This document shows positions 6,935-23,711 of a stretch of 24,000 nt of DNA, in pieces. The translations under genes were made by a program, and so were the position numbers. The stretch's first letter is position 1; each line of letters begins with the position of its first letter. Under the pieces are notes generated by a model. That model saw nothing but the letters and a program-made list of their open reading frames with translations, did no database searches and was not told the DNA's origin. The stretch comes from Arthrobacter ginkgonis (lineage in GTDB: Bacteria > Actinomycetota > Actinomycetes > Actinomycetales > Micrococcaceae): assembly GCF_039540195.1 (NCBI RefSeq), contig NZ_BAABEO010000025.1:83631-107630 (forward strand). The letters run 5' to 3'.

Positions 6935-7010
6935 GAGTGTGCAGCTCCTGTTCAACGTTGGATGCCAGGTCTCCCGCTGGCAGGCATGCCCTTTCGAGCA
7001 CGACTCAGTC

Positions 7011-7153: not shown

Positions 7154-8095
7154 ATGACGCAAGAAGTGAAAATCCATCCACTGGTGTCGCCCTGGGGCCG
7201 CTTCGGCCTCTACAGCTTCTTCATCGACGCTCCGGAACCGGCCATCGTCGACACCGGCATCGCCTCTTCCCCGGCCAAGGGCATGGCGCCCGCCCTCGAG
7301 AAGCTCGGCCGCCGCATCGAGGATGTGCGCTGGATCCTGCTGACCCACGGCCACATCGACCATCTCGGCGGCGCGCACGCGCTGTGGGAGCTCACGGGCC
7401 GGCGAGCGCAGGTGGTGATCCACGAGGCCGACGCTCCCCTGCTGCGCTCCCGGCGCGCGCACATGGACCAGTACGTGGACGTGCGCCAGCAGTACCTGGA
7501 CAATCCGAACGCCGTGGAGGAACAGACCAGGATGGCGGAGGCGGTCATCTCCGGCGAGATGGAGCCGGCGGTCCTCGTGAAGGGCGGCGAAATCCTTTCC
7601 CTCGGCGGGGACGTCACCGTCTCCGTGCACCACATCCCGGGACACACGGCCGGTTCCGTGGCCTACGTCGTGGACGGGCAGCAGTCCGTTTTCGTCGGCG
7701 ATGCCGTGCAGATCCACGGTGCAGCCAACGGCTTCCCCGGCTACGAGGACCCGCTCGCCTACCGCTCCAGCCTGCGGTACCTGCTCGACGAGGTCCGCCC
7801 GCAGCACCTCTACCTTGGCCACCCCTACCGCGGCGCGGACGGGGTGCCCCACGGCGTCGAACTGGACAGCGAGACGGCCCGGACCGCCCTGCAGGGGAGC
7901 CTGGACCTCGAAGCCAGGATCGACGGCGCCGCCCGCCGGTATCTGCGCGAGGGCCTGCGGGAGACGGACTCGGTGTACTCCCCGTTCGCCCCGGTCGCCG
8001 AGGAGCTCGGCTACGGGGGCGATCCCACGCTGGAGCCCTCCCCCTTCTTCACGACGCTGCACGGCTACCGCCGACTGGAGGCCGCCTCCCGCTGA
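7154..8095 (+). CDS. MBL-fold metallo-hydrolase
   Basis: Start ATG 7154 after GAGGAGAG (7142-7149), inside track ORF 7031..8095. It carries the HxHxDH motif LLTHGHIDHLGG, a downstream metal ligand context HHIPGHTAGS, and GDAV. Confidence 0.8.
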   Translation: MTQEVKIHPLVSPWGRFGLYSFFIDAPEPAIVDTGIASSPAKGMAPALEKLGRRIEDVRWILLTHGHIDHLGGAHALWELTGRRAQVVIHEADAPLLRSRRAHMDQYVDVRQQYLDNPNAVEEQTRMAEAVISGEMEPAVLVKGGEILSLGGDVTVSVHHIPGHTAGSVAYVVDGQQSVFVGDAVQIHGAANGFPGYEDPLAYRSSLRYLLDEVRPQHLYLGHPYRGADGVPHGVELDSETARTALQGSLDLEARIDGAARRYLREGLRETDSVYSPFAPVAEELGYGGDPTLEPSPFFTTLHGYRRLEAASR

Positions 8096-8109
8096 CCCCG
8101 GCACGGACC

Positions 8110-8148
8110 ACGACGGCGGCGCGCCGGGCGGGCGCGCGCCGCCGTCGT
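8110..8148. terminator. Bidirectional GC-rich stem-loop between convergent genes
   Basis: 15-bp perfect stem ACGACGGCGGCGCGC (8110-8124) / GCGCGCCGCCGTCGT (8134-8148) with a 9-nt loop. It lies between the MBL stop (8095) and the membrane-protein stop (8198). Confidence 0.55.
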
Positions 8149-8197
8149 TCCCGGCCGCCTTCGGCCCGATGCGGGATCGGCCCAATCCAGGGTCGAT

Positions 8198-9016
8198 TCA
8201 GTACAGGAAGATCGGCAGCCAGTCGCGGTTGTGTGCGTGCACCAGCGCAAGGAACAGGGCGAAGTCGAAGGTCAGGTGCACCGTGACGACGTAGCTGAAG
8301 GACTTCGTCAGCTTGAAGGTGTAGCCCTGCAGCAGCGCGAACGGAAACGTCAGAAGCGGCCCCCACGCCTGGTAGCCGATCTCCCACAGGAAGGACGAGA
8401 AAACCACGGCTTGAAGGAGGTTGGCCAGCCAATCCGGAAAGTGCCGCCGCAGCAGGGTGAACATGGTGCAGATGAAGAACAGTTCGTCCCAGATGCCGAC
8501 GGTGTTCACTCCGAGGAAGAGCCGCCAGAAGATGGTCGGGTCGGAGGCGTCCGGCCAGTTTTGGTAGACCCCCGTGCGGATCAGGTAGGCGGGCAGAACG
8601 AGGTAGCCGAGAAACACCACGCCGATCAGGTACAGCTTCGCGGGCAACGGCCATTTGCGGCCGGTGTTCACCGGAAACCTGATGATCCTCTCGCGGTAGA
8701 CGAAGCGCGACACCAGCCACGGCACCAGCACGGCCAAGGCGAGCGCCCCGCCCATGAGGGCCATGTGCTGGAGGCTCAAGTCGGCGTTCAGCGGGACCAG
8801 GCTGATGATGACCATTCCCGCCGCTACCAGCGCGAGGTGCCGCATCAGCTCGCGGTCGATGAAAGCCGCCGTGGCCAGGCCCAGGGCAAGGGCGCCGTAG
8901 CCAAGGGGATCGTTTTCGAACCCAAAGAGAAGCACTCCGGACGCGGAGACAAGCGCCGCCGGCACCAGCTTCCAACTGAGGGCGGTACGTGGCGTTTCCG
9001 TCGAGGTCAATGACAC
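8198..9016 (-). CDS. Polytopic membrane protein, possibly a divergent CPBP/Abi-type intramembrane protease homolog
   Basis: 272-aa ORF with about 7-8 hydrophobic segments. WDELFFICTMF resembles CPBP motif 1 (EExxxR) but with E->D and R lost. VVFSSFLWEIGY and VHLTFDFALF resemble motifs 2 and 3. The functional call is tentative. Confidence 0.6.
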   Translation of the reverse strand: MSLTSTETPRTALSWKLVPAALVSASGVLLFGFENDPLGYGALALGLATAAFIDRELMRHLALVAAGMVIISLVPLNADLSLQHMALMGGALALAVLVPWLVSRFVYRERIIRFPVNTGRKWPLPAKLYLIGVVFLGYLVLPAYLIRTGVYQNWPDASDPTIFWRLFLGVNTVGIWDELFFICTMFTLLRRHFPDWLANLLQAVVFSSFLWEIGYQAWGPLLTFPFALLQGYTFKLTKSFSYVVTVHLTFDFALFLALVHAHNRDWLPIFLY

Positions 9017-9043
9017 CCCACCAGCATGTCAGGACGGCACGAT

Positions 9044-9076
9044 GGCGGCACGCATCGCAGGATGATGCGTGCCGCC
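9044..9076 (-). terminator. Stem-loop just downstream of the MFS gene
   Basis: 13-bp perfect stem GGCGGCACGCATC (9044-9056) / GATGCGTGCCGCC (9064-9076) with a 7-nt loop. It lies 17 nt past the MFS stop (9093) in the direction of transcription and 28 nt upstream of the next gene's start (9016). Confidence 0.45.
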
Positions 9077-9092
9077 GTCGTCGACCTTCGTC

Positions 9093-10475
9093 CTACGGGG
9101 CTGCCGTCACGGCGTCCCCGGCGGCGGCCCCGCTGTTTTCGTCGCGGTTGCCTTCGTCCCGGCCCTTCCGTGCTGCCTGCGCAGCGGCCAGCGGAACGAA
9201 GAGGAAGGCCAGGGCGGCAAAGATTCCCGGGATGGCAAAGAAGAGGAAGTTCATCTGCACCGGGAGGCTGAGCGTCAGCAGGACGCCACCGAAGGTCGGT
9301 CCGACGATCGCCCCCAGCCGCCCGACGCCGGAGGCCAGCCCGATCGCCGTCGAGCGCATGAAGGACGGGTAGTACTGGGAGACGAAGGAGTAGGAAATGT
9401 TCTGGGCGCCCATGGTGCACGCACCGGTGATGAACACCAGCACCATCAGGATCGCCATGTTGTTGCCGAATCCCAGCAGCGTCAGCGAGACCGCCGAGAT
9501 CGCGAACATCGGGACGAGCACCTTCTTCACGCCCCACTTGTCGGCGAGCTTGCCCAGCACCAGGGTGCCGGCGATGGCTCCGACGTTCAGGACGATCATG
9601 AAGGTCAGGCTGGAGCCCAGGGCGTATCCGGCCTCCACCATCAGCTTGGGCAGCCAGGTCGAGACGCCGTTGATCATCAACAGGCACATGAAGAAGGCGA
9701 TCCAGATCATGATCGTTCCGAGCGCGCGGCGGTTCTTGAACAGGGCGCCCACCGGGCTACCCGCTTCCTTCTCCTGCAGGCCGGTGAATTCCGCGTCCGC
9801 CGAAAGGGCTGCGGTGGGGTTCACCTTGACCAGCGCCGCACGCAACTCACCGAGCCGCCCCTTCTCCAGGAGCATGGCCGGGGAGTCGACGAAGTACCTC
9901 ATCATGAACGGCAGGAACAGCAGGGGAAGGATGGCGACCCAGTAGACGGCATGCCAGCCGAAGGCGGGAAGCAGCAGCATGGAGACGAAGGCGGCCAGGA
10001 TGCCGCCCACGGAGAAGAAGCACATGACGACGGCGACCAGGGTGTTGGCGCGCCCCCTCGGTGCGTAATCGGTCAGCATCGCGATGAGGCAGGGCAGGAT
10101 GCCGCCGATGCCCAGACCTCCCAGGAAGCGCAGGACGGAGAACTCCAGGGGTCCCGGCGCGAAGCCGCACAGGGCCGAGGCGAGGGAAAAGAGGATGACG
10201 CTGGCCGTGAGGATCCTCTTCCTGCCGAACCGGTCCGCGAGGATTCCGAAGAGGATGGCGCCAACCATCATCCCGAAGATGCCGTAGCTGCCGATGGCCC
10301 CGGCCTGAATGGGATCCAGCGACCATTCCTTCATCAGCACCGGCAGGACCGATCCGTAAACGACCAGGTCATACATGTCGAAAGTGATGATGAAGCAGGC
10401 CCAGAACAGCATTCCGGCGTGGAAGCGGCCGAAACCCGCCCCGCCGATGAAATCCCTGATGTTGATGGTTGTCAT
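9093..10475 (-). CDS. MFS transporter, aromatic acid/H+ symporter (AAHS)-like
   Basis: 460-aa ORF with about 12 hydrophobic segments. It has the MFS loop 2-3 signature GILADRFGRKRIL and a central hydrophilic loop. Overall it resembles PcaK/BenK/MhpT-type transporters (recall only). Confidence 0.8.
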   Translation of the reverse strand: MTTINIRDFIGGAGFGRFHAGMLFWACFIITFDMYDLVVYGSVLPVLMKEWSLDPIQAGAIGSYGIFGMMVGAILFGILADRFGRKRILTASVILFSLASALCGFAPGPLEFSVLRFLGGLGIGGILPCLIAMLTDYAPRGRANTLVAVVMCFFSVGGILAAFVSMLLLPAFGWHAVYWVAILPLLFLPFMMRYFVDSPAMLLEKGRLGELRAALVKVNPTAALSADAEFTGLQEKEAGSPVGALFKNRRALGTIMIWIAFFMCLLMINGVSTWLPKLMVEAGYALGSSLTFMIVLNVGAIAGTLVLGKLADKWGVKKVLVPMFAISAVSLTLLGFGNNMAILMVLVFITGACTMGAQNISYSFVSQYYPSFMRSTAIGLASGVGRLGAIVGPTFGGVLLTLSLPVQMNFLFFAIPGIFAALAFLFVPLAAAQAARKGRDEGNRDENSGAAAGDAVTAAP

Positions 10476-10542
10476 GTCGATTGTCCCTAGTGGTTAACGG
10501 TGCCCGCGGGCACGTGCCGATGAGGTACTTCGGATACAGGTC

Positions 10543-10572
10543 GGCGGCACGAGCCGGATGACTCGTGCCGCC
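10543..10572 (-). terminator. Stem-loop between the esterase stop and the MFS start (terminator/attenuator candidate)
   Basis: 11-bp perfect stem GGCGGCACGAG (10543-10553) / CTCGTGCCGCC (10562-10572) with an 8-nt loop, in the 131-nt gap between 10607 and 10475. Confidence 0.4.
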
Positions 10573-10606
10573 GATGGATAGGCGGAAGGGGCGGGGCCCC
10601 GTGGGC

Positions 10607-11530
10607 TCAGTCCCGTTTCAGGAAGTCGCCTGTTTCCCGGAAGGCCCGGTGGAACTCCGGGATCCAGGAGAAGTTCTGGACGAAGCCGTGGTTGGACCCG
10701 GCGTAGCGGCTGACCGTGGCGTCGACGCCGGCCTCCTTGAGGCGGTAGCCGTAGAGTTCGCCCTCGTCGCGCAGGGGGTCGTACTCGGCCGTGATGACCA
10801 GGGCCGGCGGCAGGCCGGACAGGTCCTCGCGCTTGATGGGCGAGACGAGGGGATCGGCCGGATCCGCCCCGCTCTCGAGGTAGAAGGAGTTGAAGGGTTT
10901 GAGGCCCGCCGTCTCCAGCCCGTACCCTTCGGCGTTCTCCCGCAGCGAGGCGTAGCGGTCGACGTCGAAGTCCAGGTCCAGCGACGGGTAGAACAGCACC
11001 TGGTGCGTGATGCCGGCGAACCCGTCGTCGTGGGCCTTGGCGGCGACCGCGGCCACGAAGGTCCCGCCGGAACTGTCGCCGGCGATGGCGAGGTTCTTCC
11101 CGTCCCAGCCCAGCCTCTGCCCCTGCCCGGCGGCCCAGCGGACCACCCCGTAGCAGTCCTCCAGGCCCGCCGGGAAGGCGGCCTCGGGGGCCCGGCGGTA
11201 GCCCACGGAGATGACCTTGTGGCCGGTCTCCCTGGCCAGGGACCGCGCGACGTGGTCGTGGGTGTCCAGGCTGCCCAGGAAGAACGCGCCGCCGTGGAAG
11301 TACACCAGCAGGCCGTAGGTCTCCGCCTCCACCGGCGTGTAGATCCGCACGGGCACCTGTCCGGCTGAAGTCTGCAGGGTCAGGTCCTCAACGGAGTGCA
11401 GCGGCAGGCGCTCCTCCAGCGGGGCAACCATGGATTCCTCGTGCGCGCGCATGGCCTCCGGGTTCAGCGGAGAGCCATCCGGAGCAGGAAGGGTGGCGAG
11501 GATCTTGGCGATTTCGGGATGGATAGCCAT
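10607..11530 (-). CDS. Alpha/beta hydrolase, hormone-sensitive-lipase (family IV) type esterase
   Basis: Oxyanion motif VYFHGGAFFLGS (HGG), nucleophile elbow IAGDSSGGT (GDSxG), acid ITAEYDPLRDE, and histidine GSNHGF. Confidence 0.85.
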   Translation of the reverse strand: MAIHPEIAKILATLPAPDGSPLNPEAMRAHEESMVAPLEERLPLHSVEDLTLQTSAGQVPVRIYTPVEAETYGLLVYFHGGAFFLGSLDTHDHVARSLARETGHKVISVGYRRAPEAAFPAGLEDCYGVVRWAAGQGQRLGWDGKNLAIAGDSSGGTFVAAVAAKAHDDGFAGITHQVLFYPSLDLDFDVDRYASLRENAEGYGLETAGLKPFNSFYLESGADPADPLVSPIKREDLSGLPPALVITAEYDPLRDEGELYGYRLKEAGVDATVSRYAGSNHGFVQNFSWIPEFHRAFRETGDFLKRD

Positions 11531-11545
11531 TGGGCGACCTCGGCC

Positions 11546-12655
11546 TTACTGGTTGGCCGGGAACGCGGAGTCCACCGCGTCGGCGTGCCAGCCGAGGCGG
11601 GAGACGCGCTGCAGTTCATCCGTCACCGGTTTGCGGGTGGCCTGGTAGATCGACAGCGCGTCCTTCACGGAGTCGCCCTGCAGGAGCGCCTCGGCGAGGC
11701 CGTCGGCATCCAGGATCGCCGAGTTCGCGCCCTGGCCCTGATGGTGGAGCATCGCGTGGGCCGCATCGCCCAGCAGCGCGACGGAGTCGGTGTGCCACGA
11801 GTCGACCGAATCGATGTCGAACACCGAACGGCTCGTCACCTGGCTCAGGTCGAGCTCCCGGGCGACCTGGACGATCCGCTCATCGAAGCCTTCCAGGATC
11901 TTCACGAGGTACTCGGTCGAGATCTCCGGCGCCCACGAGTCGTCGTCGGACGGGGCCGTGATGTCGTAGGAGAGCTGCCCGCGGTGACGCAGCGGCAGGT
12001 TGTAGGCGATCGTGCCGTTCTCGCCCATGTAGAAGCGCGGGTTGTCGTCCGTCACCAGCCCGTGGGCGTCCTCGATCGAAATGACCGCACGGTAGGCGTG
12101 CTCGCCGGAGAACACCGGCTCCTTCTGCGAGAACAGTTGGTTGCGCACCGTCGAGCGGATGCCGTCGGCGCCGATCACGAGGTCGGCGGTGACTACCTCG
12201 CCGTTCGCGAAGGTCAGCGTCGCGTGGTCGCCGTTGTCCTCGATGGTCTCCAGCTTGTGGCCGAGGTGCACCATGCCCTCGGGGAGCACGCTGAGCAGGG
12301 CGTCGATGAAGTCCCCGCGGTGGATCATGCGGTTGTGGTTGACCTGCTCGTAGGCGTTCAGGAACGGCCACTCCTCGTTCGCCAGGACGTGCTTGCCGTC
12401 CGCGCTGAGGATCTCCAGGTGGTCGCTGGGCGAGCTCACCGCGGCGATCGCATCGAAGATGCCCCACTTGCGGAACAGTTCGACCGACGGCGGGCGCAGC
12501 CCGATGCCGGCGCCGACCTGGGCGAGGGCGGATGCCTGCTCATAGACGTGGACATTTTCCGCGCCGATGCTCTGCAGCGCCTTGGCCACGGAGGCCCCGC
12601 CGTAGCCGCCGCCGACGATGGCGATCTTGAGGTTCTGAATTTCCGAAGCCTTCAT
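11546..12655 (-). CDS. Class A FAD-dependent aromatic-ring monooxygenase (salicylate / 6-hydroxynicotinate hydroxylase-like)
   Basis: Real start ATG 12655 (MKASEIQNLKIAIVGGGYGGASVA), inside the over-extended track ORF 11546..13774. Motifs are GxGxxG, DG motif VIGADGIRSTVR, and GD motif LLGDAAHAMLHHQGQGANSAILDA. Confidence 0.85.
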   Translation of the reverse strand: MKASEIQNLKIAIVGGGYGGASVAKALQSIGAENVHVYEQASALAQVGAGIGLRPPSVELFRKWGIFDAIAAVSSPSDHLEILSADGKHVLANEEWPFLNAYEQVNHNRMIHRGDFIDALLSVLPEGMVHLGHKLETIEDNGDHATLTFANGEVVTADLVIGADGIRSTVRNQLFSQKEPVFSGEHAYRAVISIEDAHGLVTDDNPRFYMGENGTIAYNLPLRHRGQLSYDITAPSDDDSWAPEISTEYLVKILEGFDERIVQVARELDLSQVTSRSVFDIDSVDSWHTDSVALLGDAAHAMLHHQGQGANSAILDADGLAEALLQGDSVKDALSIYQATRKPVTDELQRVSRLGWHADAVDSAFPANQ

Positions 12656-12720
12656 TGTTTTTCTCTTTCTTGACCCAGGGCGTCCCTGGAAAAACGGGGG
12701 TGTGGTGGTGTGCCGAAGGA

Positions 12721-13674
12721 TCAGGCCTGGATCGCCAGGAAGTCGGCAGGGTTCTCTTCGAAGATGGCCTTGAGCTGCGCGTCGCCGATGCCGTTGGTGC
12801 GCATGTCGGGGATCAGCACCTCGAAGATGTAGTTCACGGTGTGGCCCTTGACGCCGGGCCAGCCGAGCGGGCTGCAGTTGGCGTCGGCGGAGACGAGGAG
12901 CTGGTCGAGGTATCCCTTGCCCACCAGGTCGATGAAGTGGTCCATGCGGTCCTTGCGCGGACGGGCCCAGAACGGCGGGTCCGGGAGCTCGGTTTCGTAG
13001 CCGAAGGTGTCGAAGCCGATGCGGCCGCCTTCGCCCATGATCATTTCGCTGGGGGTGCTCGCCGCGTTCAGGCCGTCGTCGGCGTGCCCGAAGAGCACGC
13101 GGTCCAGCGGCAGGCCCTCCTCGCGGAAGATCGCGATCGCCGGCTCGGGGTCGATGGCCAGGTGGGTGAGGACCGGCACCCCGGTCACGACGGCGGCGCG
13201 GGCCGCTGCCCGGTAGATGCGCTTGTCCAGTTCGGTCATGCGGCCACCGCGGCTTACGCCGACCTTGATGATGCCGGCCTTGCTGCCGGTGTCCCCGATG
13301 CCCACGGTGATCTCGTGGATGAAGACCCGGGCCAGGTAGTCGACGGTCGCACGGGCGAAGTGCGGCAGCGCGGTGTCCCCGCCGACGAACCCGGTGCAGG
13401 CGACGATGTTGACGCCGGTCTTCCTGGACAGGGACTTGTAGTAGTCGATGTCGCGGCCGTTGCAGATGCCGGTGGCGTCGACGAAGGTCCCGCCGCCGTT
13501 TTCGTGGAACGTGCGCAGCTTCGGCACCGTCTCTTCGTAGGCCTGCTCGGGCGTCTTCCACCACTTGGAGTCCAGCTCGGACCCGGGCATGCCGTATCCG
13601 ATGTGCTCGTGGATGGCCACCAGGCCCAGTTCTTCGGCCGGGATCGTCCCCAGCACGGTGTTTACCTTGGTCAT
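12721..13674 (-). CDS. Phosphotriesterase-family (PTE/PLL-like) amidohydrolase with a canonical metal-ligand set
   Basis: VAIHEHI (HxH), AGIIKVGVS (candidate carboxylated Lys), VPVLTHLA (His), VLFGHADD (His), LLVSADAN (Asp). RBS GAGGGGA precedes the ATG at 13674. Confidence 0.8.
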   Translation of the reverse strand: MTKVNTVLGTIPAEELGLVAIHEHIGYGMPGSELDSKWWKTPEQAYEETVPKLRTFHENGGGTFVDATGICNGRDIDYYKSLSRKTGVNIVACTGFVGGDTALPHFARATVDYLARVFIHEITVGIGDTGSKAGIIKVGVSRGGRMTELDKRIYRAAARAAVVTGVPVLTHLAIDPEPAIAIFREEGLPLDRVLFGHADDGLNAASTPSEMIMGEGGRIGFDTFGYETELPDPPFWARPRKDRMDHFIDLVGKGYLDQLLVSADANCSPLGWPGVKGHTVNYIFEVLIPDMRTNGIGDAQLKAIFEENPADFLAIQA

Positions 13675-13721
13675 TACTGTCCCCTCGGGAAAAAGCTTGT
13701 TGGGTGTGTGCCGCCGCGCGT

Positions 13722-14705
13722 TCAGCGCACCGACAGCAGGTTGCGCGGGTTGTCGACGAGGATGCGCTGGGCATCCTCGTCGCTCAGGCCCTGCGACTTG
13801 AGGAAGGGCGCGAACGTGGACAGGACGTAGCTGTACGGCAGGTCGTAGTCCGGCAATCCCTTGGCCACGCCGATCGCGTTGCCGGACAGGATGATCTGGT
13901 GCCCGTGGCCGGCCGCGACGAGTTCGAGCACCAGGGCCGCGCGCTCGCGGTCGGTGAGGTAGTCGCCGTCGTCGTTCAGGCCGACGTGGTCCAGGCCCAC
14001 GAAGGCCCCCCGGCGGGCCACCTCATGGGCGGCGCCGGCGGCGTCCTTGCGGTCAAGGTCCCCCACAAGCACCCGGTCGGCCGGAATCTTCTCCTCCAGC
14101 ACGACGTCGAGGTCGTGCACGGCGTCGGCGCCGAAGCGGATGGACACCGGCACCCCGGTGTCCAGCGCGGCGCGGGCCGAACCGCGGAACAGGCTCTCCT
14201 CGGTGGCGGTCATGCCGCTGCGGTCGGCGGTGGTCGTGACGATGCCGGCGGCGGCACGGCGCTCAACGCGGGGGACCACCATGCCCTCGGTGACCTCCTT
14301 GGAGAAGAGGTCCGCGAACTTCTCGGCCGGCCACGGGGTCGGGGGGTTGGTCTGCGGCGTCAGAAAGTAGCCGCCGAGCTCCTCCTCGGGGCCAAGGCCC
14401 GTGGAGGCGACGATGTGCACGCCGGTAGAGCGGGACAGGGCCTCGTAGAGCTTGAGGTCGCGGCCGTGGAACATGCCTGTACTGTCGACGATGGTCTTTC
14501 CGCCCTGGGCGCGGAAGTCCGCCAGCTTCGCGGCCAGGATCTCGAAGATCTCCGCCCGGTCCATGGTGATGTCCGGGGCGTACTGGGCGCCGGGGAGCAC
14601 CGAGAGCAGGGCCTCGTGGACCCCGACAACACCCAATTCGTGAGCGGGGACGGGGCCAAGGACCGTGTTGACGGTTTGGCCGGTGACATTCGTTGTATCC
14701 GTCAT
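13722..14705 (-). CDS. PTE-family paralog with most metal-ligand positions substituted (possible pseudoenzyme or partner subunit)
   Basis: It is colinear by eye with the downstream PTE gene (TVNTVLG.VPA.ELG.V..HE..., GG.T.VD.TG...GRD...Y..LSR.TGV.IVA.TG, AAGIV, TGVPV, DRVL.G). The ligand positions read VHEALL (second His->Ala), GIVTTTA (Lys->Thr), VSIRFG (His->Arg), LVGDLDR (His->Asp) and ILSGNAI (Asp->Asn). The ATG at 14705 has GAAAGG 8 nt upstream; the track start is GTG at 14711. Confidence 0.7.
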   Translation of the reverse strand: MTDTTNVTGQTVNTVLGPVPAHELGVVGVHEALLSVLPGAQYAPDITMDRAEIFEILAAKLADFRAQGGKTIVDSTGMFHGRDLKLYEALSRSTGVHIVASTGLGPEEELGGYFLTPQTNPPTPWPAEKFADLFSKEVTEGMVVPRVERRAAAGIVTTTADRSGMTATEESLFRGSARAALDTGVPVSIRFGADAVHDLDVVLEEKIPADRVLVGDLDRKDAAGAAHEVARRGAFVGLDHVGLNDDGDYLTDRERAALVLELVAAGHGHQIILSGNAIGVAKGLPDYDLPYSYVLSTFAPFLKSQGLSDEDAQRILVDNPRNLLSVR

Positions 14706-14905
14706 TGGCACAACCTTTCGTCAGCGTCACGCCCTCATTGGCGTCACGCGCTGGGAAGGATCATGCACCGCGCGACCTCTGGATGGATCCTCGCCGAACT
14801 CGGTGCAGGCGATGTAAACGAAGGAGACAGCGCGCGGGGAGCCCAGGATCCGCTATGGACCCTAGTCCCCTGCTCGCGCCTGTGACCTTGATTACCTGCG
14901 TACTA

Positions 14906-14933
14906 GATTTACATGTTGTTATGCCAAAGTCAA
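14906..14933 (-). promoter_or_regulatory. Candidate sigma70-type promoter for the PTE operon, with an adjacent CTAG-centred element
   Basis: On the minus strand: TTGACT (14933-14928), a 16-nt spacer, then TAAATC (14911-14906). This is the only AT-rich stretch (14886-14935) in the gap between the GntR stop and the PTE-like start. GTACTAGAT (14899-14907) half-resembles the HutC/DasR-type core GTCTAGAC. Confidence 0.3.
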
Positions 14934-14985
14934 TGGAGAGTCTCCCGCAGCTGGCCGCGCTCCTCCTTCGGGGCCCGGCGGCGAC

Positions 14986-15729
14986 TCAGCGGCTGGTGGT
15001 GAACCGGTACTTGAAATCCTCGGCACGGTGCACCGCGGAACGCCATCCCGCGGGCAGGCCCCCGGTCGTGAAGAAGGTTGTCTCGATGACGAGCAACGGG
15101 CTCCCCTCGCCCACGCCGAAGGTCGCCGCCTGGCCGGCGGTTGCCGCCGTCGCCCAGGCTTCGTGCTCGGCCCGGTCGAGCGTGATGCCGAACTCCCGCT
15201 CCAGCAGCTCGAAGGCGGATCCCCGGTCTTCCAGTTCCTCAATCGAGGGGCTGAACTCCTCGGGCGCGCGAACATAGATGCTGGCTTCCACGAGAGGCTC
15301 GTTCTCGACCGAGATCAACCGGATGAAATGCAGGAGCCGTTCGTGCGCTTCGAGCCCCAAGAGGTCCCGAATCCGGGCGGGGGGTTCCACGCGTTCGATG
15401 CCGGAAACCGTCCCGGTCGGATGCAGTCCGCTGTCGGAGAGGTACTGGTACAGGGCCCCCGACCGCACGTCGGCCGGCCGCCGCACCCGGGCACCCGTGA
15501 CCGGGAACGTCCCCTTGCCTTGCTTCCTGTAGACGTACCCCTCGCTGACGAGCTCCTGGAGGGCCTGCCGGATGGGCGCCCGGCTGACGTCGAATCGGCC
15601 GAGCAGCTGCGCCTCGGTCATCGGCGTGTTGGGATCCACGTTTCCCTCGGCGATCTCCCTGCGCAGGATTTCCTTGATCTGCCGATACAGGGGTACCCCG
15701 GACGAGGGATCGAGCTCGCCATATGCCAT
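14986..15729 (-). CDS. GntR-family transcriptional regulator, HutC subfamily (wHTH + UTRA effector domain)
   Basis: Likely start ATG 15729 ([29 protein letters not shown]...[35 protein letters not shown]). The C-terminal half has a UTRA-like layout (chorismate-lyase fold pattern). Confidence 0.8.
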   Translation of the reverse strand: [247 protein letters not shown]

Positions 15730-15826
15730 CAGTCTTCTGTTCCTCCACGCCAGGTGCCACCGGGTTGTAGCCTGCAGGAAGTCAACCACAGAACGGCGAA
15801 AGCATAGGCGACGGCGTTCGGCAGCC

Positions 15827-16507: not shown

Positions 16508-16783
16508 GTGAAGAAGATCGGATTCCTGTCCTTCGGCCACTGGACCGACCACCCGCAGTCCGGCACGCGCAGCGCGTCGGACGCGCTCCTGCAGGCGATC
16601 GACCTCGCGGTCGCGGCCGAGGAGCTCGGCGCGGACGGCGCCTACTTCCGTGTTCACCACTTCGCGCAGCAATACGCCTCCCCGTTCCCGCTGCTCGCCG
16701 CGATCGGGGCACGGACCAGCCGAATCGAGATCGGCACGGGCGTCATCGACATGCGCTACGAGAATTGCAACTCCATGAATTGA
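16508..16783 (+). pseudogene. 5' fragment of an LLM-class (luciferase-like) flavin-dependent oxidoreductase gene, truncated by insertion
   Basis: VKKIGFLSFGHWTDHPQSGTRSASDALLQAIDLAVAAEELGADGAYFRVHHFAQQYASPFPLLAAIGARTSRIEIGTGVIDMRYEN matches the N-terminal roughly 25% of LLM enzymes of about 330-350 aa. After the Asn codon (16763-16765) the frame reads CNSMN-stop, and the integrase gene begins within about 10 nt. Confidence 0.65.
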
Positions 16784-16800
16784 GCTACCTTGGGTAGCGT
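16745..16800. other. Host/element junction (attL-like); crossover inferred near 16765-16768
   Basis: LLM homology by eye ends at ...MRYEN (codon 16763-16765). The element-derived sequence tgcaactccatgaattgagctaccttgggtagcg runs into the integrase start. The exact core dinucleotide cannot be determined from one junction. Confidence 0.4.
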
Positions 16801-18352
16801 GACCGACAACCGCCTCCGCGCTGTGCTGTACCTCAGATTGTCGGCTGTGTCCGACGACTCCACCAGCCTCGATCGTCAGGAAAGAGACCTGCGCGAGCAC
16901 GCCGGGCGCAAGGGCTGGCACGTCACCGAGGTCCTCGTAGATGAAGGCATCTCCGGCAGGAAAGCCCGCGCCAAGGCCGCCGAGGCCGTCCGTATGATCG
17001 CCGACGACGAGGCCGACGTCCTGGCCGTGTGGAAGTTGGACCGCTTTACAAGAATGGGCTATGACGGGCTCGGCGCGCTCTCCCAGGCCCTCGCCACCCG
17101 CGCCGAGGGCGCCAAGGCTGGCCGGTGCATCCCGGCGCTATTCGTCGCCCTGCATGACGGCCTCAATTCCAATCAAGCCGCGTTCCGCATGATCGCGGGC
17201 GTATTGAGCGAGGTTGCCAGGAGCGAGGCCGAGAACGCCGCCGCGCGCATTGCTAACTCGATCGAGCACCGCAAGACACGGACCCATAAATTCGCGGGAG
17301 GGTCCGCCGTGCCGCTCGGCTACCGCTCTGTCCCGGCGCCGGACGGTACGGGGCGCATCCTCGTACACGACGACGAGGAGGTCGCCCTTATCCGCGACGT
17401 GGCGGCGCGCATCCTCTCCAATATCGAGTCGCTTACCGGCATCGCCGCCGACCTGAACAAGCGCGGCGTGCCGACGTCCAGGTCGCTCGCGCGCCGCGCG
17501 CTCCGCCAGGGGTTGCCCGCCGAGGGCCTGGATACTGGCAAGTGGACTGTGTCGACGTTCCGCAACGTCTGGACGTCCGACGTGCTCCTCGGCCGCGTCG
17601 TGCATCGTGGCAAGTTCGTTTCCGACGCCGCCGGAATCCCCTTGGCCGTATGGCCGCCGATCCTGGACCGCTCCACCCTGGACGCTCTCCGCGTCCGCAT
17701 GAACTGGAAGCCGCGCAAGGATCAACGCGGCCCGCTGGGGCTCCCGCCCGCGCCGAAACCGAAGGTCCAACCTACCCGCAAGCGTGCCGCGCGGATCTTG
17801 TCGTCGGTCGCGTTCTGTGGGCTCTGCGACTCGCGCCTGTACGTGACGACGACGTCGGGCACACCTATCTACAAGTGCGGGTCTAGCTGGAATGGTGAGA
17901 AATGCCCTTCGCCGTCGATCACCGCCGACGCCCTGGACGAGTACGTCGCCGCCCGCGTCCTGGCCGTCGCCGGAGAGTGGCCCGAAATGGCTACCGAGAC
18001 GATCGCCAGCGGCGGCGCCCCCGAGGCGACCCTCGCCGAGATCGAGGCTCTCCTCCGCGAGGCGTCCGTCGCCATGACGGAGGACGACGCCCAGGTGCCG
18101 GAACTCCTGGAGCGGATCGCCGGACTCAAGGCCCGCCGTGCCGACCTCCGCGCCCGCCCCGTGACCGTCGAGACCGTAAGCAAGCCCACCGGCCGCACGC
18201 TGGCCGAGGCATGGGACGCCGACGAGGGCACCGCCTGGCGCCGTTCTGTCCTCCTATGGGCGATCGACCATGTCCGCGTCGGTCCGCGTACGCCCGGCAT
18301 GGGCACCCGCGCATTCGACGAGGACCGCGTCGCGATCTACTGGAACTCCTGA
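16790..18352 (+). CDS. int: Large serine recombinase (Bxb1/phiC31-type serine integrase)
   Basis: N-terminal resolvase domain with a catalytic Ser context AVLYLRLSAVSDDSTSLDRQ, and VWKLDRFTR. It also has a recombinase domain, zinc ribbon FCGLCDSRLYV...YKCGSSWNGEKCPS, a coiled-coil segment (EIEALLRE...LLERIAGLKARRADLRAR) and a C-terminal WRRSVLLWAIDHVRV. The architecture parallels Bxb1 gp35 as I recall it. The start is TTG 16790 or GTG 16799. Confidence 0.9.
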   Translation: MGSVTDNRLRAVLYLRLSAVSDDSTSLDRQERDLREHAGRKGWHVTEVLVDEGISGRKARAKAAEAVRMIADDEADVLAVWKLDRFTRMGYDGLGALSQALATRAEGAKAGRCIPALFVALHDGLNSNQAAFRMIAGVLSEVARSEAENAAARIANSIEHRKTRTHKFAGGSAVPLGYRSVPAPDGTGRILVHDDEEVALIRDVAARILSNIESLTGIAADLNKRGVPTSRSLARRALRQGLPAEGLDTGKWTVSTFRNVWTSDVLLGRVVHRGKFVSDAAGIPLAVWPPILDRSTLDALRVRMNWKPRKDQRGPLGLPPAPKPKVQPTRKRAARILSSVAFCGLCDSRLYVTTTSGTPIYKCGSSWNGEKCPSPSITADALDEYVAARVLAVAGEWPEMATETIASGGAPEATLAEIEALLREASVAMTEDDAQVPELLERIAGLKARRADLRARPVTVETVSKPTGRTLAEAWDADEGTAWRRSVLLWAIDHVRVGPRTPGMGTRAFDEDRVAIYWNS

Positions 18353-18406: not shown

Positions 18407-18983
18407 TCCTATTCCCGCACACGGGCGCCCAGAGCCGCCCAGGAGACCGCCCGGCACCGCGCGGCCTAGGCGTTCCGCGCCCGTCCTCCGCGCTTCTAGG
18501 TCCAGTCCCGCGCCTGGATCCTGGCGCCGACCCGAGGAGCCCCAGACGCCCCGCTGAGGCCCTCCTCTTGTCTCCGGCGGCTGGCGCCGGTCCTGTCCGC
18601 GCGAGGCCCGGAGGTGGCCACGTGGCGACCTTGGATCCCTGCGCCGTGGCCAGGCTGGCGGGCGGCGCCCGCCTCGGCGAGATGCCAGCCCGTTTACACG
18701 CCGAGGACAACGCGGGAGGAGGCGGCCGTCGCCCCCGTGCCAGTTTCCCCGCCAGGAGGCGCCGCCCCAGGATCCGCCCGTGCCCGGCGGGCCTGAAGGC
18801 TCTGGCCCGGTTCCGAGGCCGCCAGGCGGCCGCCCAGGGCGCCGGAGGAGGTGGCGGCGGTTCGCCCTCGCGGGGAGAGGGCGGCCCGCCCCGTGCCCGC
18901 GTCCGTGCCAGCGCGGGAGACGACGGCCGGAGGCGCCGGAGAGGTCGTTTTCCCGACCCTGGACGCCTGCGTCTGAGCCTAAA

Positions 18984-19092
18984 GGTGGTGGAAGTGGTGA
19001 AAGTGGAGGTACTTCTCTATCCGTTCTCAAGTAAAGCCATTACTTGAGTAGAGATATAGAGAGACCACCACTTTCGCCACTTTCACCACTTC
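18984..19092. repeat. Module 1: inverted arrays of 9-bp GTGGNGNNN units flanking an AT-rich core with a central hairpin
   Basis: Left array is GGTGGTGGAAGTGGTGAAAGTGGAGGT (18984-19010). The right array, as its reverse complement, is GAAGTGGTGAAAGTGGCGAAAGTGGTGG (19092-19065). The identical 16-mer GAAGTGGTGAAAGTGG lies at 18991-19006 and inverted at 19077-19092. TCTCTAT/ATAGAGA is also inverted. The central hairpin is CTCAAGTAA (19026-19034) / TTACTTGAG (19040-19048) with a 5-nt loop. Confidence 0.8.
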
Positions 19093-19223
19093 GGGCCGTC
19101 ACCGGCCGCCCTGGCCCGCTCCCCGCGCGATCGTGACCGGCCGCACGCCCCGGCCGTGGACAGTTTCGGCGCTCCTGGCGGTCTTCTCTCTTGTAAGCAC
19201 CCGACCACGACCCCGGCCCGGTC

Positions 19224-19387
19224 GGATCCGCATTTAACGGACCCTGGCCGTCTACTCAGACGGGAGAGACCCGCGCATTTGTAACACCCCCGGCCGTCTA
19301 CTCAGACGGGAGAGATCCGCGCCCGCGTCCTGTACGCCCGGCCGTCTACTCCAGTAGGAAAGATCCGCGCCGCGTGCGCCTGGATCC
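19224..19387 (+). repeat. Tandem direct repeat, period 46-48 bp, about 3 copies, each with a conserved 31-bp core containing a 6-bp hairpin
   Basis: GGCCGTCTACTCAGACGGGAGAGACCCGCGC begins at 19246 and GGCCGTCTACTCAGACGGGAGAGATCCGCGC at 19292. A degenerate copy GGCCGTCTACTCCAGTAGGAAAGATCCGCGC begins at 19340. CCGTCT-ACTC-AGACGG is self-complementary. Flanking (GA)TCCGC(GC)ATTTRTAAC is also repeated before copies 1 and 2. Confidence 0.85.
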
Positions 19388-19404
19388 TCCCCCCCACCAA
19401 GTTT

Positions 19405-19610
19405 GAACCGTCCGCGCCCGCGCACTCTCCGGGGCGCGGCGGTTCGCACCCCGTCCGAGCGGCCTAAGCCCCCGCTCGGCGCTGGCCCTCGTGGCCGGTC
19501 TTTTCATGGATGGGACCCGGTAGCCCCGCCGCCGTAAACCCGGCGGGGCTACTGCCCTCCTGTCCGTGAGCCCTCACCCGCCGCCGTACCCTCGGCGGCA
19601 TTTTCATTTG
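19405..19610 (+). ncRNA. Structured untranslated region: four or five consecutive GC-rich hairpins, the last terminator-like (candidate leader/attenuator or small RNA)
   Basis: H1 at 19405-19445 pairs GAACCG(T)CCGCGCCC with GGGCGCGGCGGTTC. H2 at 19455-19479 pairs CCGAGCGG with CCGCTCGG. A weak stem with TCTTTTC lies at 19482-19505. H3 at 19520-19552 pairs GTAGCCCCGCCG with CGGCGGGGCTAC (12 bp, perfect). H4 at 19580-19599 pairs GCCGCCG with CGGCGGC and is followed by ATTTTCATTTG (to 19610). No ORF covers the region. Whether this is an RNA, and on which strand, is inferred. Confidence 0.3.
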
Positions 19611-19648
19611 CCAAACAAAGTAAGCCAACGCCCGAAAGGAGGCCGCCC

Positions 19649-19864
19649 ATGGCCGACCATGTCTGTCTCATTTGTCACCGCCCGTTCACTGGCCAGGCCA
19701 GCGCGGAAACGTGCTCTACAGCCTGCCGAGTCACCCGCTCCCGGCGGCGCAAGGAGGCCGAGCGCCGGAAGGCCCTGGACCTCCTGGCCCGCATGGCCAC
19801 CGCCCGCGACCCGGCCGTCGTCGAGTCGCTCCGGCGCGAGGCCGAGCGCCTCACCCGCGACTAG
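19649..19864 (+). CDS. Small zinc-ribbon-like basic protein (71 aa), function unknown
   Basis: Strong RBS GAAAGGAGG sits 6 nt before the ATG. The sequence MADHVCLICHRPFTGQASAETCSTACRVTRSRRRKEAERRKALDLL has a CxxC-x12-CxxxC arrangement followed by an Arg/Lys-rich helix. Confidence 0.7.
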   Translation: MADHVCLICHRPFTGQASAETCSTACRVTRSRRRKEAERRKALDLLARMATARDPAVVESLRREAERLTRD

Positions 19865-19870
19865 CCCGCG

Positions 19871-19944
19871 AGTGGTGAAAGTGGCGTTTGTGGTCTTTCT
19901 TCTGTTCGTTTCTACAGTTCTGCTCTCTCTAGCCACACCACACC
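19871..19944. repeat. Module 2: a second GTGG-unit array, pyrimidine/AT-rich core and CCAC-rich inverted partner
   Basis: AGTGGTGAAAGTGGCG (19871-19886) is identical to the reverse complement of 19075-19090 in module 1. It continues TTTGTGGTCTTTCTTCTGTTCGTTTCTACAGTTCTGCTCTCTCTA, then GCCACACCACACC (19932-19944). It starts 7 nt after the zinc-ribbon gene stop. Confidence 0.7.
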
Positions 19945-20171
19945 CCCCCAAACTCACCCCCCACACGCTGACTAGGCGAAATGCGCCTATTTGCCCGCCT
20001 ACGCATGGTGCGTGTGGTGAGTAGCCGGCCCCTATTTACAGCGGCCGGCAATTCACGCGGGGAGAGCCTCCGGCCCTTACGCCCGGAGGGCGTTTGTGTC
20101 CCTCCAACTCACGCCCGCAAGTACCGCCCCACACCGGGGCACCGCCCCCACCCCTTGAAAGGACCCCCACC

Positions 20172-21181: not shown

Positions 21182-21607
21182 ATGAATTTCCGCACCCCGG
21201 ACAACTACGGCCGCCCGATCTACCCGGCCGCCGTTGTCGCCGTTGTCCCTGGCGCCTCCGAGGCCCTGGCCGCTTGGACGGCCGCCACGGACCCGACCGA
21301 GGCCGCCACCCTCCGCGCCGCCCTGGATGACCTGATGGGCGGCCCCGATAACTACGTGGCCCGCACCCGCGCGGCCGCCACGCTGGCCCTGGAGGCCCAG
21401 GCCGACGCCGTCACCGCTTGGCAGGCTCTCCGCACCGCCCTGGCGACCCGCGAGGCCGCCCTCGGCTACGTCGTCCCCGGCCGTACCTGGCGCCTGCCCG
21501 TGGCCCCGCCTGGCGGCGTCGCCGAGGGGGCCGCCCAGGTCGAGCACATGATCGACGCTTTCGTTTCCGGCCTGGACGTTGACGCCCTGGAAATCATCGC
21601 CAACTAG
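21182..21607 (+). CDS. Hypothetical protein (141 aa); short member of a tandem paralog pair
   Basis: ATG is preceded by CCGAAAGGACCCCCACCC. It shares N-terminal G(R/Q)x(I/V)YPA...GAxEALAAW and C-terminal G(L/F)DVDALE blocks with the next ORF. Confidence 0.7.
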   Translation: MNFRTPDNYGRPIYPAAVVAVVPGASEALAAWTAATDPTEAATLRAALDDLMGGPDNYVARTRAAATLALEAQADAVTAWQALRTALATREAALGYVVPGRTWRLPVAPPGGVAEGAAQVEHMIDAFVSGLDVDALEIIAN

Positions 21608-21675: not shown

Positions 21676-22407
21676 ATGAGTACCCACACCCTCAAGATCA
21701 CCGCCAACGGCCAGCGCGTGTACCCGGCCTGGCTTATCCGCCTCACGTCCGGCGCCGAGGAGGCCCTCGCCGCGTGGGAGGCCTTGGACGCTGAGGCCCG
21801 GACCTACTTCGACGCCGTCCGCGCCGCCCTGCGGGCAAAGAACGAACTCGGCCGCATGGTCGACGGTGAACTCGTCCCCAAGCCCGGTATCCGCGCCGCC
21901 GCGCTTGAGGACGCCCAGGAGGCCGTCCGTCAGGCCGAGGCCGCCCAGGCCGCGCACGCCCGCAAGGTGAGCGCCGCCCGCCGCAAGTTCGACACCCTCA
22001 TGCAGAACCCGTCCGGCCCGGAGGTCCGCCGCAAGGCCGCCGCCGAGTACGCGATCGAACAGCACGCGGAAGTGGCCCGGCTGTGGCCGCTCCTGGCCGC
22101 CGCCCTGGAGGACCGCGACGACGCGCACCGCGTCGCCGGATCGCCGGGCCGCTCTTGGGAGAACACGGCTGGCGTCCCCAGCGGCGGCCGCTTCCATGTC
22201 GTCGGCGAGGCCGAGCGGATCCTCTCCGGTGCTATCGACGGTTTCGACGTCGACGCCCTGGAGCGTGTGGCCGCTGGCGAGGACGTCGCCCCCGCGATCG
22301 AACTGCACCCCGACGAGAGCAACCCCGCCCAGGCAATCAAGAAGGCCGAGGAGAGGCGCGCCGCTAGCCAGGCCGAGGCGGCCCGCTCCCGCGCCGCCGG
22401 TTTTTAG
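21676..22407 (+). CDS. Hypothetical protein (243 aa); long member of the same paralog pair
   Basis: ATG is preceded by CCGAAAGGACCCCATCCC. NGQRVYPAWLIRLTSGAEEALAAWEALD and ILSGAIDGFDVDALERVAAG match the upstream ORF. The central Ala/Arg/Glu-rich helical insert is unique to this copy. Confidence 0.7.
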   Translation: MSTHTLKITANGQRVYPAWLIRLTSGAEEALAAWEALDAEARTYFDAVRAALRAKNELGRMVDGELVPKPGIRAAALEDAQEAVRQAEAAQAAHARKVSAARRKFDTLMQNPSGPEVRRKAAAEYAIEQHAEVARLWPLLAAALEDRDDAHRVAGSPGRSWENTAGVPSGGRFHVVGEAERILSGAIDGFDVDALERVAAGEDVAPAIELHPDESNPAQAIKKAEERRAASQAEAARSRAAGF

Positions 22408-22747: not shown

Positions 22748-23044
22748 GTGCTGGAGACCGGCCGGAGGATGCCGAAGAAAACGCGGGAGCAACGAGCGTA
22801 TGACCGCCGTGTTCGTTCCCGCGTCGAGGGCTTCATGGTCTGCCTCGGCAAGTTCGCCACCGACGCCCACGCGGACGCCGTCCCGCTCGGTCTCCTCGGC
22901 TGGCTCCGCCGCTCCGAGTACCTCGCACTGTCCGAGGCCGAGCGGCTGGAGCACCTCAAGGCCGCCGTCCGCGCTGAGGTGAAGGCCGACGAGGGACCGC
23001 GCCCCGCGCACCCTGACGAGGCCGAGCCCTGGCCCACCTACTAA
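22748..23044 (+). CDS. Hypothetical protein (91-98 aa); short member of a second tandem paralog pair
   Basis: Start is GTG 22748 or ATG 22769. EQRAYDRRVRSRV...FA...A.PLGLL...YLALSEAERLEHLKAAVRAEVKADEGPRPAHPDE aligns with the N-terminal half of the next ORF. Confidence 0.6.
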   Translation: MLETGRRMPKKTREQRAYDRRVRSRVEGFMVCLGKFATDAHADAVPLGLLGWLRRSEYLALSEAERLEHLKAAVRAEVKADEGPRPAHPDEAEPWPTY

Positions 23045-23075: not shown

Positions 23076-23711
23076 ATGAACATCGAGACCACCGCCACCG
23101 AGACCAGCAAGCCGAATCACACCCCGGAACAGCGCCGCTATGACCGCGCGGTTTACCGCCGCGTTAAGCGCGGCATGGAGCACAGCGCCAGGTTCGCCGC
23201 CGCCGACGCCGCAACCGCCCCGCTCGCCCTCATGGCGCCCCACTCCCGCGCGGCCTGGCTGGCCCTGGACGAGGCCGCACGCCTGGACCATTTGCGCCAG
23301 GTCCTCCGCGCCCAGGCTAAGGCCGTCATCGGCCCGCGCCCGGAGGACGTCGAGGAGACCGCACCGGCCACCGTCGAGACCACGGCCGCACCGGCCACCG
23401 TCGAGACCACGGCCGCACCGGCCACGCCTGCCCGCCCCTCCGGCCGCCGCCTCGTCGTTGCCTGCATCGGCGGGTGCGGAACCTGGATAGTCGCCACCTC
23501 GGCCCGGCCCGCCGTCGTGCGATGCACGCCCGGCCAGCGCCGCGCCCAGCGCGAGGACCCGACCGGCGCCGCTCCCGTTGAGGCCCGCTCGTCGCACGCC
23601 GCGACCGCCTCGGCCGTCGACTACTCCGCCGCCCGTGCCGAGCGCCCGGCCGCCGCCCAGGGTAGGCGCAAAGCCAAGCGCCGCGCCCGCGCCGCGACCT
23701 GCGGCAAGTAG
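23076..23711 (+). CDS. Hypothetical protein (211 aa); long member of the second paralog pair, with a 9-aa tandem repeat and a Cys-containing basic C-terminal extension
   Basis: ATG is preceded by ACGAAGGACCCAACCCC. EQRRYDRAVYRRV...FAAADAATAPLALM...WLALDEAARLDHLRQVLRAQAKAVIGPRPEDVEE is paralogous to the upstream ORF. It continues with PATVETTAA x2.5, then VVACIGGCGTWIV...VVRCTPGQRR and an RRKAKRRARA tail. Confidence 0.65.
   Translation: MNIETTATETSKPNHTPEQRRYDRAVYRRVKRGMEHSARFAAADAATAPLALMAPHSRAAWLALDEAARLDHLRQVLRAQAKAVIGPRPEDVEETAPATVETTAAPATVETTAAPATPARPSGRRLVVACIGGCGTWIVATSARPAVVRCTPGQRRAQREDPTGAAPVEARSSHAATASAVDYSAARAERPAAAQGRRKAKRRARAATCGK
23361..23428 (+). repeat. In-frame 27-bp tandem repeat, about 2.5 copies
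   Basis: GCACCGGCCACCGTCGAGACCACGGCC occurs at 23361-23387 and identically at 23388-23414, with a partial copy GCACCGGCCACGCC at 23415-23428. Confidence 0.9.

Follow-up and report, generated by a model that had tools for sequence, protein, structure and literature searches.

A clustered one-strand motif in the gene-free leader of a serine-integrase island of Arthrobacter ginkgonis

The repeats lie within a small integrative island

The window, that is the whole 24,000-nt stretch of DNA analysed here from the soil actinobacterium Arthrobacter ginkgonis, corresponds to contig C25:83631-107630 of a genome with ~70% GC. Positions 1-15800 carry ordinary metabolic genes, and this host flank includes two adjoining phosphotriesterase-family genes at 12721-14711 (PF02126, E = 8e-50 and 2e-36). 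Further downstream a luciferase-like monooxygenase gene is found in two pieces that are 10.87 kb apart. The left junction follows position 16764 and the other end lies at ~27630 (L022:4260), beyond the window. Both junctions share AGAA, and the host genes FhaA and PP2C come after the second monooxygenase piece. The DNA between the junctions forms an island of 10.87 kb (~10.9 kb).

16508..16764, + strand: luciferase-like monooxygenase, N-terminal piece (Pfam PF00296 profile positions 3-75)
16799..18352, + strand: large serine recombinase (integrase), at the left end of the island
21182-21607 / 21676-22407 and 22748-23044 / 23076-23711: paralogous gene pairs encoding 141/243 aa and 98/211 aa
L022:550-942 and L022:1376-1621 (~23920-24312 and ~24746-24991 in window numbering): small terminase and endonuclease VII-like protein
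L022:4261-5026 (~27631 onward in window numbering): luciferase-like monooxygenase, rest (PF00296 positions 85-242)

The integrase start codon is ~35 nt inside the left junction, and the ~1.3 kb after the integrase contain no credible gene. This gene-free region is followed by a one-strand operon that starts with the gene for a 71-aa zinc-ribbon protein, here called zn71, and continues with a gene for a 286-aa protein. The operon also encodes a 95-aa protein and the two paralogous pairs, for which no Pfam, PHROG or PDB match was found. Within the 211-aa gene there is a perfect 27-bp tandem repeat (2.5 copies, 23359-23425) that encodes the repeated peptide TTAAPATVE. The part of the island beyond the window encodes the small terminase (phrog_1496, E = 1.2e-12; Pfam Terminase_4 below threshold), the endonuclease VII-like protein of 81 aa and, on the opposite strand, a HIRAN protein.

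The island has no recognisable gene for replication, capsid formation, conjugation or partition, and comparison of its ORFs with Pfam and PHROGs gave no match to a Rep, primase, helicase, HTH or repressor family. An integrase and a small terminase are thus accompanied by no recognisable replication or capsid gene, and by this gene content the island looks like a phage satellite.

A structured leader precedes the island operon

Between the integrase gene and zn71, four kinds of element follow each other: an inverted module, the motif array, a cascade of hairpins and a strong ribosome-binding site.

18985..19089, no strand assigned: inverted module with 50-nt arms of GTGGTGRAA-type 9-mers and an AT-rich centre, directly 5' of the array
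19110-19370, + strand: motif array, between the inverted module and the hairpins
19400..19609, + strand: strong hairpin cascade, between the motif array and zn71
19481-19499, + strand: terminator-like stem, then CTTTTC
19580-19599, + strand: terminator-like stem, then T-run ATTTTCATTT
19649..19864, + strand: zn71, treble-clef-like zinc-ribbon protein with an Arg-rich helix, preceded by the Shine-Dalgarno sequence GAAAGGAGG at 19634-19642

The AT-rich centre of the module spans ~19007-19067 and is 40-270 nt 5' of the motif copies. A 13-mer of the module, GTGGTGAAAGTGG, occurs elsewhere in the genome only at 19872 and 25385 (window numbering), and both of these sites are in the island.

The leader contains three terminator-like hairpins on the + strand and none on the - strand. 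The last T-run ends ~25 nt 5' of the zn71 ribosome-binding site, which leaves no space for a promoter between them, so that the first gene can be reached only through the last stem. Scans for sigma-70-type promoters found none in the leader. Several of the leader stems contain G.U pairs, which would be A.C mismatches on the other strand. Within the window no Rfam family reached its gathering score, and a tRNA search was also empty.

The repeats are copies of a 15-nt motif

An earlier note on this DNA, made from the sequence alone, had described three tandem copies at a spacing of 46-48 nt, the third of them decaying but with both flanks kept around a rearranged centre, and spacers that partly repeat as well. 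A repeat search finds the same three units. They share a core of 15 nt, CCYGGCS-NN-CTNCTC, which is read on one strand and usually has GGG(AG) a few bases 3' of it.

19110..19124, + strand: degenerate motif copy CCTGGCCCGCTCCCC, one mismatch
19174..19188, + strand: motif copy W0, CCTGGCGGTCTTCTC, exact match, 69 nt 5' of W1
19242-19276, + strand: repeat unit 1, 35 nt, the reference for identities in the repeat search
19243..19257, + strand: motif copy W1, CCTGGCCGTCTACTC, core of unit 1
19288-19322: repeat unit 2, 35 nt, 94% identity to unit 1, starting 46 nt after unit 1
19289..19303, + strand: motif copy W2, CCCGGCCGTCTACTC, core of unit 2
19336-19370: repeat unit 3, 35 nt, 74% identity to unit 1, starting 48 nt after unit 2
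19337..19351, + strand: motif copy W3, CCCGGCCGTCTACTC, core of unit 3

In unit 3 the flanks GGCCGTCTACTC ... GATCCGCGC are both kept and the centre is altered, as the note had it. The spacers between the units have only fragments in common (CGCATTTRTAAC-like), and a half unit, GGATCCGCATTTAACGGACCCT, is found 5' of the first repeat copy. The best 35-mer self-match at a spacing of 36-100 nt is 33/35 in the window, compared with 22-26 in 30 dinucleotide shuffles. The array escaped Tandem Repeats Finder because the copies are few and the spacers diverged. The count of three holds for the tandem units but missed the fourth exact motif copy (W0) and the degenerate copy upstream of it. The repeats themselves are real, but the part under constraint is the 15-nt motif, and the hairpin that the note had pointed out in them is not special (see below). 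The note had also set CRISPR aside, and we agree, as there are only 3-4 copies, the spacers are 11-13 nt long and there are no cas genes.

The motif is strongly clustered. An island scan with the 5' half of the repeat unit as query found exact matches to GGCSSTCTNCTC only at 19177, 19246, 19292 and 19340, all on the + strand, and within 12.5 kb around the island the exact 15-nt motif is confined to the four leader copies. The 536-nt leader has five matches at ≤1 mismatch (0.05 expected), every one of them on the + strand and none on the - strand. Across the whole 5.19-Mb genome the motif occurs 50 times on both strands together, and the only pairs less than 100 nt apart are formed by the four leader copies (Poisson P ~2e-14). 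The array is unique in the 5.19-Mb assembly, and the three repeats are real extra copies of a 15-nt recognition motif in the gene-free control region of the island.

The motif array recurs in related islands

The 286-aa protein has a single homologue in a collection of 5.8 billion proteins, which is encoded by Arthrobacter sp. NPDC089319, and a search of 400 family genomes with the integrase revealed three more islands, G352, G265 and G078.

Contig L023: Arthrobacter sp. NPDC089319 island, inserted in a Tad-pilus locus
9201 (CCTGGCGCTCTCCTC) and 9256 (CCTGGCGCTCTACTC), 55 nt apart, and a weaker copy at 9010: motif copies of the NPDC089319 island
L050:1655-2548 and L050:6467-7312: G352 genes for a major-head-like protein and a HEPN protein

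The NPDC089319 island shares the zinc-ribbon protein (54% identity), the 286-aa protein (59%) and the 243-aa protein (60%) with that of A. ginkgonis, and the two islands also have in common the 95-aa protein, a 123-aa protein and a phrog_1496 terminase. Its cargo includes an XhoI-type restriction-modification pair (L023:15046-17407). Its leader has the same order of elements, with an inverted GTGGCGRAA module, motif copies, hairpins, a terminator-like stem and a ribosome-binding site. It contains two exact motif copies and weaker ones, all on one strand. The two leaders are too diverged to be aligned by blastn. Hairpins at matching leader positions differ by paired changes, for example GAGCGG/CCGCTC in place of GAACGG/CCGTTC, and the terminator-like stem, again followed by the ribosome-binding site, carries the block CTCACCCGCCGCCGT, which is identical to 19573-19587 of the window.

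In G352 an inverted 9-mer module with 59-nt arms is directly followed by CCCGGCCCCCTCCTC and CCCGGCCCGCTCCTC, 35 nt apart. A further copy, CCTGGCCACCTACTA, lies 69 nt beyond, and then comes a gene whose product has an N-terminal CxxC motif. These are three motif copies at ≤1 mismatch within 200 nt, where 0.02 are expected. The G352 cassette is positioned 5' of the gene for the major-head-like protein (phrog_283, E = 8e-29), and its cargo also includes a DUF7169 protein and a RiboL-PSP HEPN protein. In G265 and G078 the 9-mer module is accompanied by a zinc-ribbon gene of clear homology, but no convincing array is present, which makes the array an accessory of the cassette.

In A. ginkgonis and the two other array-bearing Micrococcaceae islands the array takes the same position, after the inverted 9-mer module and before the zinc-ribbon gene, and all motif copies lie on the strand of the downstream operon with none on the opposite strand. 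The earlier note had named absence of the repeat from all related elements as an outcome that would count against it; arrays of the motif are present in two related islands. The motif has been kept between islands whose leaders cannot be aligned and whose integrases differ widely (26% identity to the A. ginkgonis integrase in NPDC089319 and 39% in G352), which indicates that CCYGGCS-NN-CTNCTC is under constraint, although statistics of array conservation that rest on three islands are thin. The unit lengths also differ (46-48, 55 and 35 nt), so each lineage amplified the motif on its own. This points to selection, with more than one copy apparently favoured. The repeats look functional, and almost certainly are.

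Wider searches returned little else. A search of the 400 family genomes for the two-copy pattern gave only the three island arrays and three repeats within coding sequences, and the reversed-pattern control gave no match. When genome_contigs and IMG/VR were scanned for the two-copy pattern, the Arthrobacter island was the only match apart from coding-sequence noise, and no further array member was found in IMG/VR or 185,579 species genomes. The exact 24-mer of the repeat is absent from genome_contigs, DNA from 18900-19700 has no match in phage and plasmid collections (noise only at E up to 10), and metagenome and viral contigs scanned with the 286-aa protein as a guide gave none either. Inverted GTGGYGAAAG modules do exist in viral contigs, none of them with a 15-mer array after it; by visual inspection, such a module in one viral contig (L068) directly follows the C-terminal end of a P4-type primase. 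The islands constitute a rare and undescribed group of small serine-integrase islands in the Micrococcaceae.

The embedded hairpin and the spacing are not conserved

Units 1 and 2 contain the palindrome CCGTCT-ACTC-AGACGG (19248-19263 and 19294-19309), which the earlier note had regarded as a conserved feature. It is present in only two of the four motif copies, and in the W3 unit it is replaced by CTACT/AGTAG. When units 1 and 2 were folded, 59% and 65% of their mononucleotide shuffles, respectively, were at least as stable, and among ten folded units from the three islands none was clearly above chance except for one borderline case in G352. The relatives use different pairings in a shifted register, GCTCTC/GGGAGC with a T.G pair in the NPDC089319 island and GGCCCC/GGGGCC with a 17-nt loop in G352. 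The CCGTCT/AGACGG hairpin is thus probably an incidental by-product of the version of the unit found in the A. ginkgonis island.

The spacing of the motif is equally variable, with intervals of 69, 46 and 48 nt in the A. ginkgonis island, 55 (and 191) nt in the NPDC089319 island and 35 (and 69) nt in G352. Intervals of 46 and 48 nt correspond to 4.4 and 4.6 helical turns, so that the sites do not lie on one face of the helix. The proposal that regular spacing and an embedded palindrome reflect cooperative binding of a dimer is not supported by these observations. A dimer that reads the palindrome cooperatively is unlikely because the palindrome is no better than chance and the spacings are irregular and off-phase; a monomeric or asymmetric reader, or one acting at the level of RNA, fits the motif better. 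The binders suggested with that proposal, ParB, RHH proteins and replication initiators, find no counterpart either, as the search of the island for ParA/ParB, RHH and Rep genes was negative.

A zinc-ribbon protein adjoins the cassette

A zinc-ribbon protein gene adjoins the 9-mer module in all five islands, and in four of them the protein is clearly homologous, making zn71 a candidate reader of the cassette. The structure model of zn71 (pLDDT 93) has a zinc knuckle followed by a long basic helix of 36 residues. The protein shows weak, sub-threshold similarity to the treble-clef family DUF2116; there is no significant family match, a fold search gave no significant structural neighbour, and a protein search recovered only zn71 itself. 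The model of the neighbouring 286-aa protein (pLDDT 41) is too poor for use.

Possible functions of the array

We tentatively favour, at somewhat less than even weight, an interpretation in which the array consists of amplified DNA sites for a sequence-specific protein that controls the leader. The repeats would represent a local amplification of one 15-nt strand-specific motif within a conserved non-coding cassette, in which an inverted AT-rich 9-mer module, an array in one orientation and a structured leader with a terminator-like end lead up to a strong ribosome-binding site and the zinc-ribbon gene. Each motif copy, we infer, is a double-stranded DNA site for an asymmetric, sequence-specific protein, which may be the zinc-ribbon protein encoded beside the cassette, a helper-phage factor or a host factor. 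Several sites in the leader, once occupied, could then work together as an orientation-dependent operator or roadblock and so decide whether transcription enters the island operon. In a variant of this mechanism, the occupied sites would instead act as auxiliary sites of the adjoining origin-like module. Consistent with DNA sites, conservation concerns a sequence and not a fold, the immediate neighbour of the array (the inverted-repeat, AT-rich module) is a structure at the level of DNA, and copy number and spacing are irregular. Less easily accommodated are the lack of an HTH repressor or Rep gene in the island, the failure of zn71 to match any structure or family significantly and the absence of the array from G265 and G078 despite the shared 9-mer module; moreover, copies that are co-oriented with the operon in a structured leader with + strand bias would suit an RNA motif equally well.

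The main alternative, possible if rather doubtful, is that the element acts on RNA. Transcription would run rightward through a long leader that starts at the 9-mer module and reaches the zinc-ribbon gene. On this RNA the pyrimidine-rich motif, with or without the small stem 3' of it, would be read by the Arg-rich zinc-ribbon protein, Nus-type factors or Rho, which would decide passage of the leader terminators by attenuation or by antitermination of the nut/boxA type. We presume some likeness between the motif and lambdoid boxA. Folding of the leaders is more stable than that of dinucleotide shuffles, by a wider margin on the + than on the - strand (z = -3.7 versus -2.1 in A. ginkgonis, -3.8 versus -1.0 in NPDC089319 and -6.5 versus -5.0 in G265). 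All three terminator-like hairpins are on the + strand, and the last, ~25 nt before the ribosome-binding site, is kept in the NPDC089319 island. The G.U pairs, the paired changes between the hairpins of different islands, the co-orientation of every motif copy with the operon and the Arg-rich helix of zn71 all agree with such a scheme. The stem-loop within the unit, however, is at chance level and not conserved in register, no promoter or Rfam family was found for the leader, and G352 combines a good array with a 200-nt leader that is unstructured (z = -0.6) and has no terminators. As to the nut/boxB-type RNA sites suggested in the earlier note, a nut-like element is conceivable in a leader with above-shuffle folding and + strand terminator-like hairpins at its end, but a conserved boxB-type stem-loop is absent. 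The more specific scheme, that array and Arg-rich zinc-ribbon protein form an RNA-based switch resembling N/nut antitermination or its inverse in undescribed actinobacterial phage satellites, seems unlikely; the zinc-ribbon protein or a helper-phage factor would here recognise the copies of the CU-rich motif on the leader as it is being transcribed and so decide terminator passage. Whether the motif is read on DNA or on RNA, the array would control how transcription reaches the island operon.

Three further explanations compete with protein-bound DNA sites and RNA elements. The inverted module and the array could together be a packaging signal, a cos/pac-type site on which the small terminase of the island lands. 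The layout has the right appearance: a symmetric element comes first, three or four repeats follow at intervals of tens of bases, and the first gene of an operon is next. The island also encodes a phrog_1496 terminase and a small endonuclease VII-like protein, and the G352 cassette precedes a major-head-like gene. We nevertheless consider this improbable: terS is 4.3 kb 3' of the array, the G352 genome lacks a phrog_1496 terminase despite its clear array, the terminase of G078 (62% identical to that of A. ginkgonis) comes without an array, and the terS proteins of the A. ginkgonis and NPDC089319 islands are too diverged for tblastn although both islands have the motif. Recent neutral tandem duplication of one motif copy (itself functional or not) by slippage, leaving extra copies without function, is a slightly fainter prospect. 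It would account for a near-identical first pair and a decaying third copy, for copy number that varies among islands and for two islands without an array, but it sits poorly with independent amplification in three islands with different unit lengths, with cores far better conserved than the spacers and with a non-tandem fourth copy 69 nt upstream. We give very little credence to a centromere-like partition site of the sopC type, in which tandem units of ~45 bp carry an inverted repeat bound by a ParB-type protein: the 46-48-nt units with their short inverted repeats recall such a site, but Pfam identifies no ParA or ParB gene in the island, the inverted repeat is not kept among copies or relatives, and the element is integrative.

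Some other ideas were discarded. Readings of the motif as an ECF-type or sigma-54-type promoter fail on spacing (judged by eye). We dropped a P4-like CI-RNA scheme, since the sole complement to the repeats (18916-18930, matching at 13/15 positions) is not kept in the relative. Nor do the repeats qualify as arm-type integrase sites, because the junction lies 2.4 kb away and 5' of int and because serine integrases need no such sites.

Comparison with known systems

Two lambdoid systems resemble the cassette in layout only. Lambdoid nut sites (boxA and boxB, used by the N protein) combine a pyrimidine-rich motif with a small stem, ahead of leader terminators and with a gene for a small Arg-rich protein nearby. 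The island likewise has a pyrimidine-rich motif with a small stem, a putative leader with terminator-like hairpins and an Arg-rich protein gene close by. Unlike in nut, its stem-loop is not conserved, its motif is repeated 3-5 times, the zn71 gene lies behind the terminator, and there is no homology. In lambda cosB the small terminase has three repeated sites, R1-R3, which are spaced by tens of bases and lie next to a symmetric element. The island repeats too lie beside a symmetric element, just 5' of an operon and in a terminase-encoding element, as in cosN-cosB, but the array and the terminase family are distributed differently among the islands, and 4.3 kb separate terS from the repeats.

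As a working analogue, the stoperators of Cluster A mycobacteriophages come closest, but the array does not belong to that system. Stoperators are asymmetric 13-mers bound by a monomeric repressor, their orientation follows transcription and they stop elongation (PMC9283540), and more than 20 sites for L5 gp71-type repressors are found through the whole phage genome (PMC9283540, PMC6550527). The island motif is similarly short, asymmetric, oriented with transcription and part of an actinobacterial mobile element, and its copies lie between the presumed promoter and the genes, where a bound protein could halt elongation. Unlike stoperators, the 15-mer is confined to one leader, the sequences are unrelated, and none of the island ORFs yielded a homologue of an HTH/stoperator-domain or L5 gp71-type repressor.

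Iteron-type origins of plasmids and satellites, such as the SaPI ori (PMC9371898, PMC4980987), share with the island direct repeats that adjoin an AT-rich region flanked by inverted short repeats, in a small integrative, satellite-like element. The island differs in having no Rep, primase or helicase gene and in its irregular repeat spacing, and the 15-mer is a second class of repeat, distinct from the 9-mers and absent from two islands that bear the module. The sopC site of the F plasmid is built of 12 direct repeats, 43 bp in length, and SopB binds an inverted repeat within each of them (PMC3177203). The tandem units of the island are similar in size (~45 bp) and contain a short inverted repeat, but there are only 3-4 of them, the inverted repeat is neither conserved nor significant, and ParA/ParB genes are missing. 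As an array of cis-acting sites the repeats are of a familiar kind, but their sequence family is new.

The only part that is widely shared within this island family is the non-coding cassette with its small zinc-ribbon gene, and its cis-acting sites therefore offer the best handle on how the islands are controlled. They may give insight into how the islands are silenced and how a helper phage then activates, copies or packages them. The 15-nt motif is a concrete target for binding, reporter and deletion work and a search key for further members. To our knowledge, phage satellites are well described in the Proteobacteria and Firmicutes and hardly at all in the Actinobacteria.

Other sequence elements of the islands

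Four of the five islands have the element CCGTTTACACG(CC) close to the 9-mer module (window 18690-18700; L023:8975; L049:3030, inverted; L051:2076), and it occurs once in the window, where 0 are expected by chance.

The island also contains a direct repeat of ~120 bp, with two copies 5.5 kb apart (window 19852-19978 and L022:2009-2130), one 3' of the zinc-ribbon gene and the other 3' of the terminase block. Each copy begins with GTGGTGAAAGTGG, continues with a T/C-rich tract and then has TGACTAGGCG. The only P4-type primase of the genome (TIGR01613, 272 bits) is encoded on another contig (C12:67258-68911) and has no adjoining GTGG-type 9-mer module; the sequence TTGACTAGGC follows its stop codon and resembles the island motif TGACTAGGCG.
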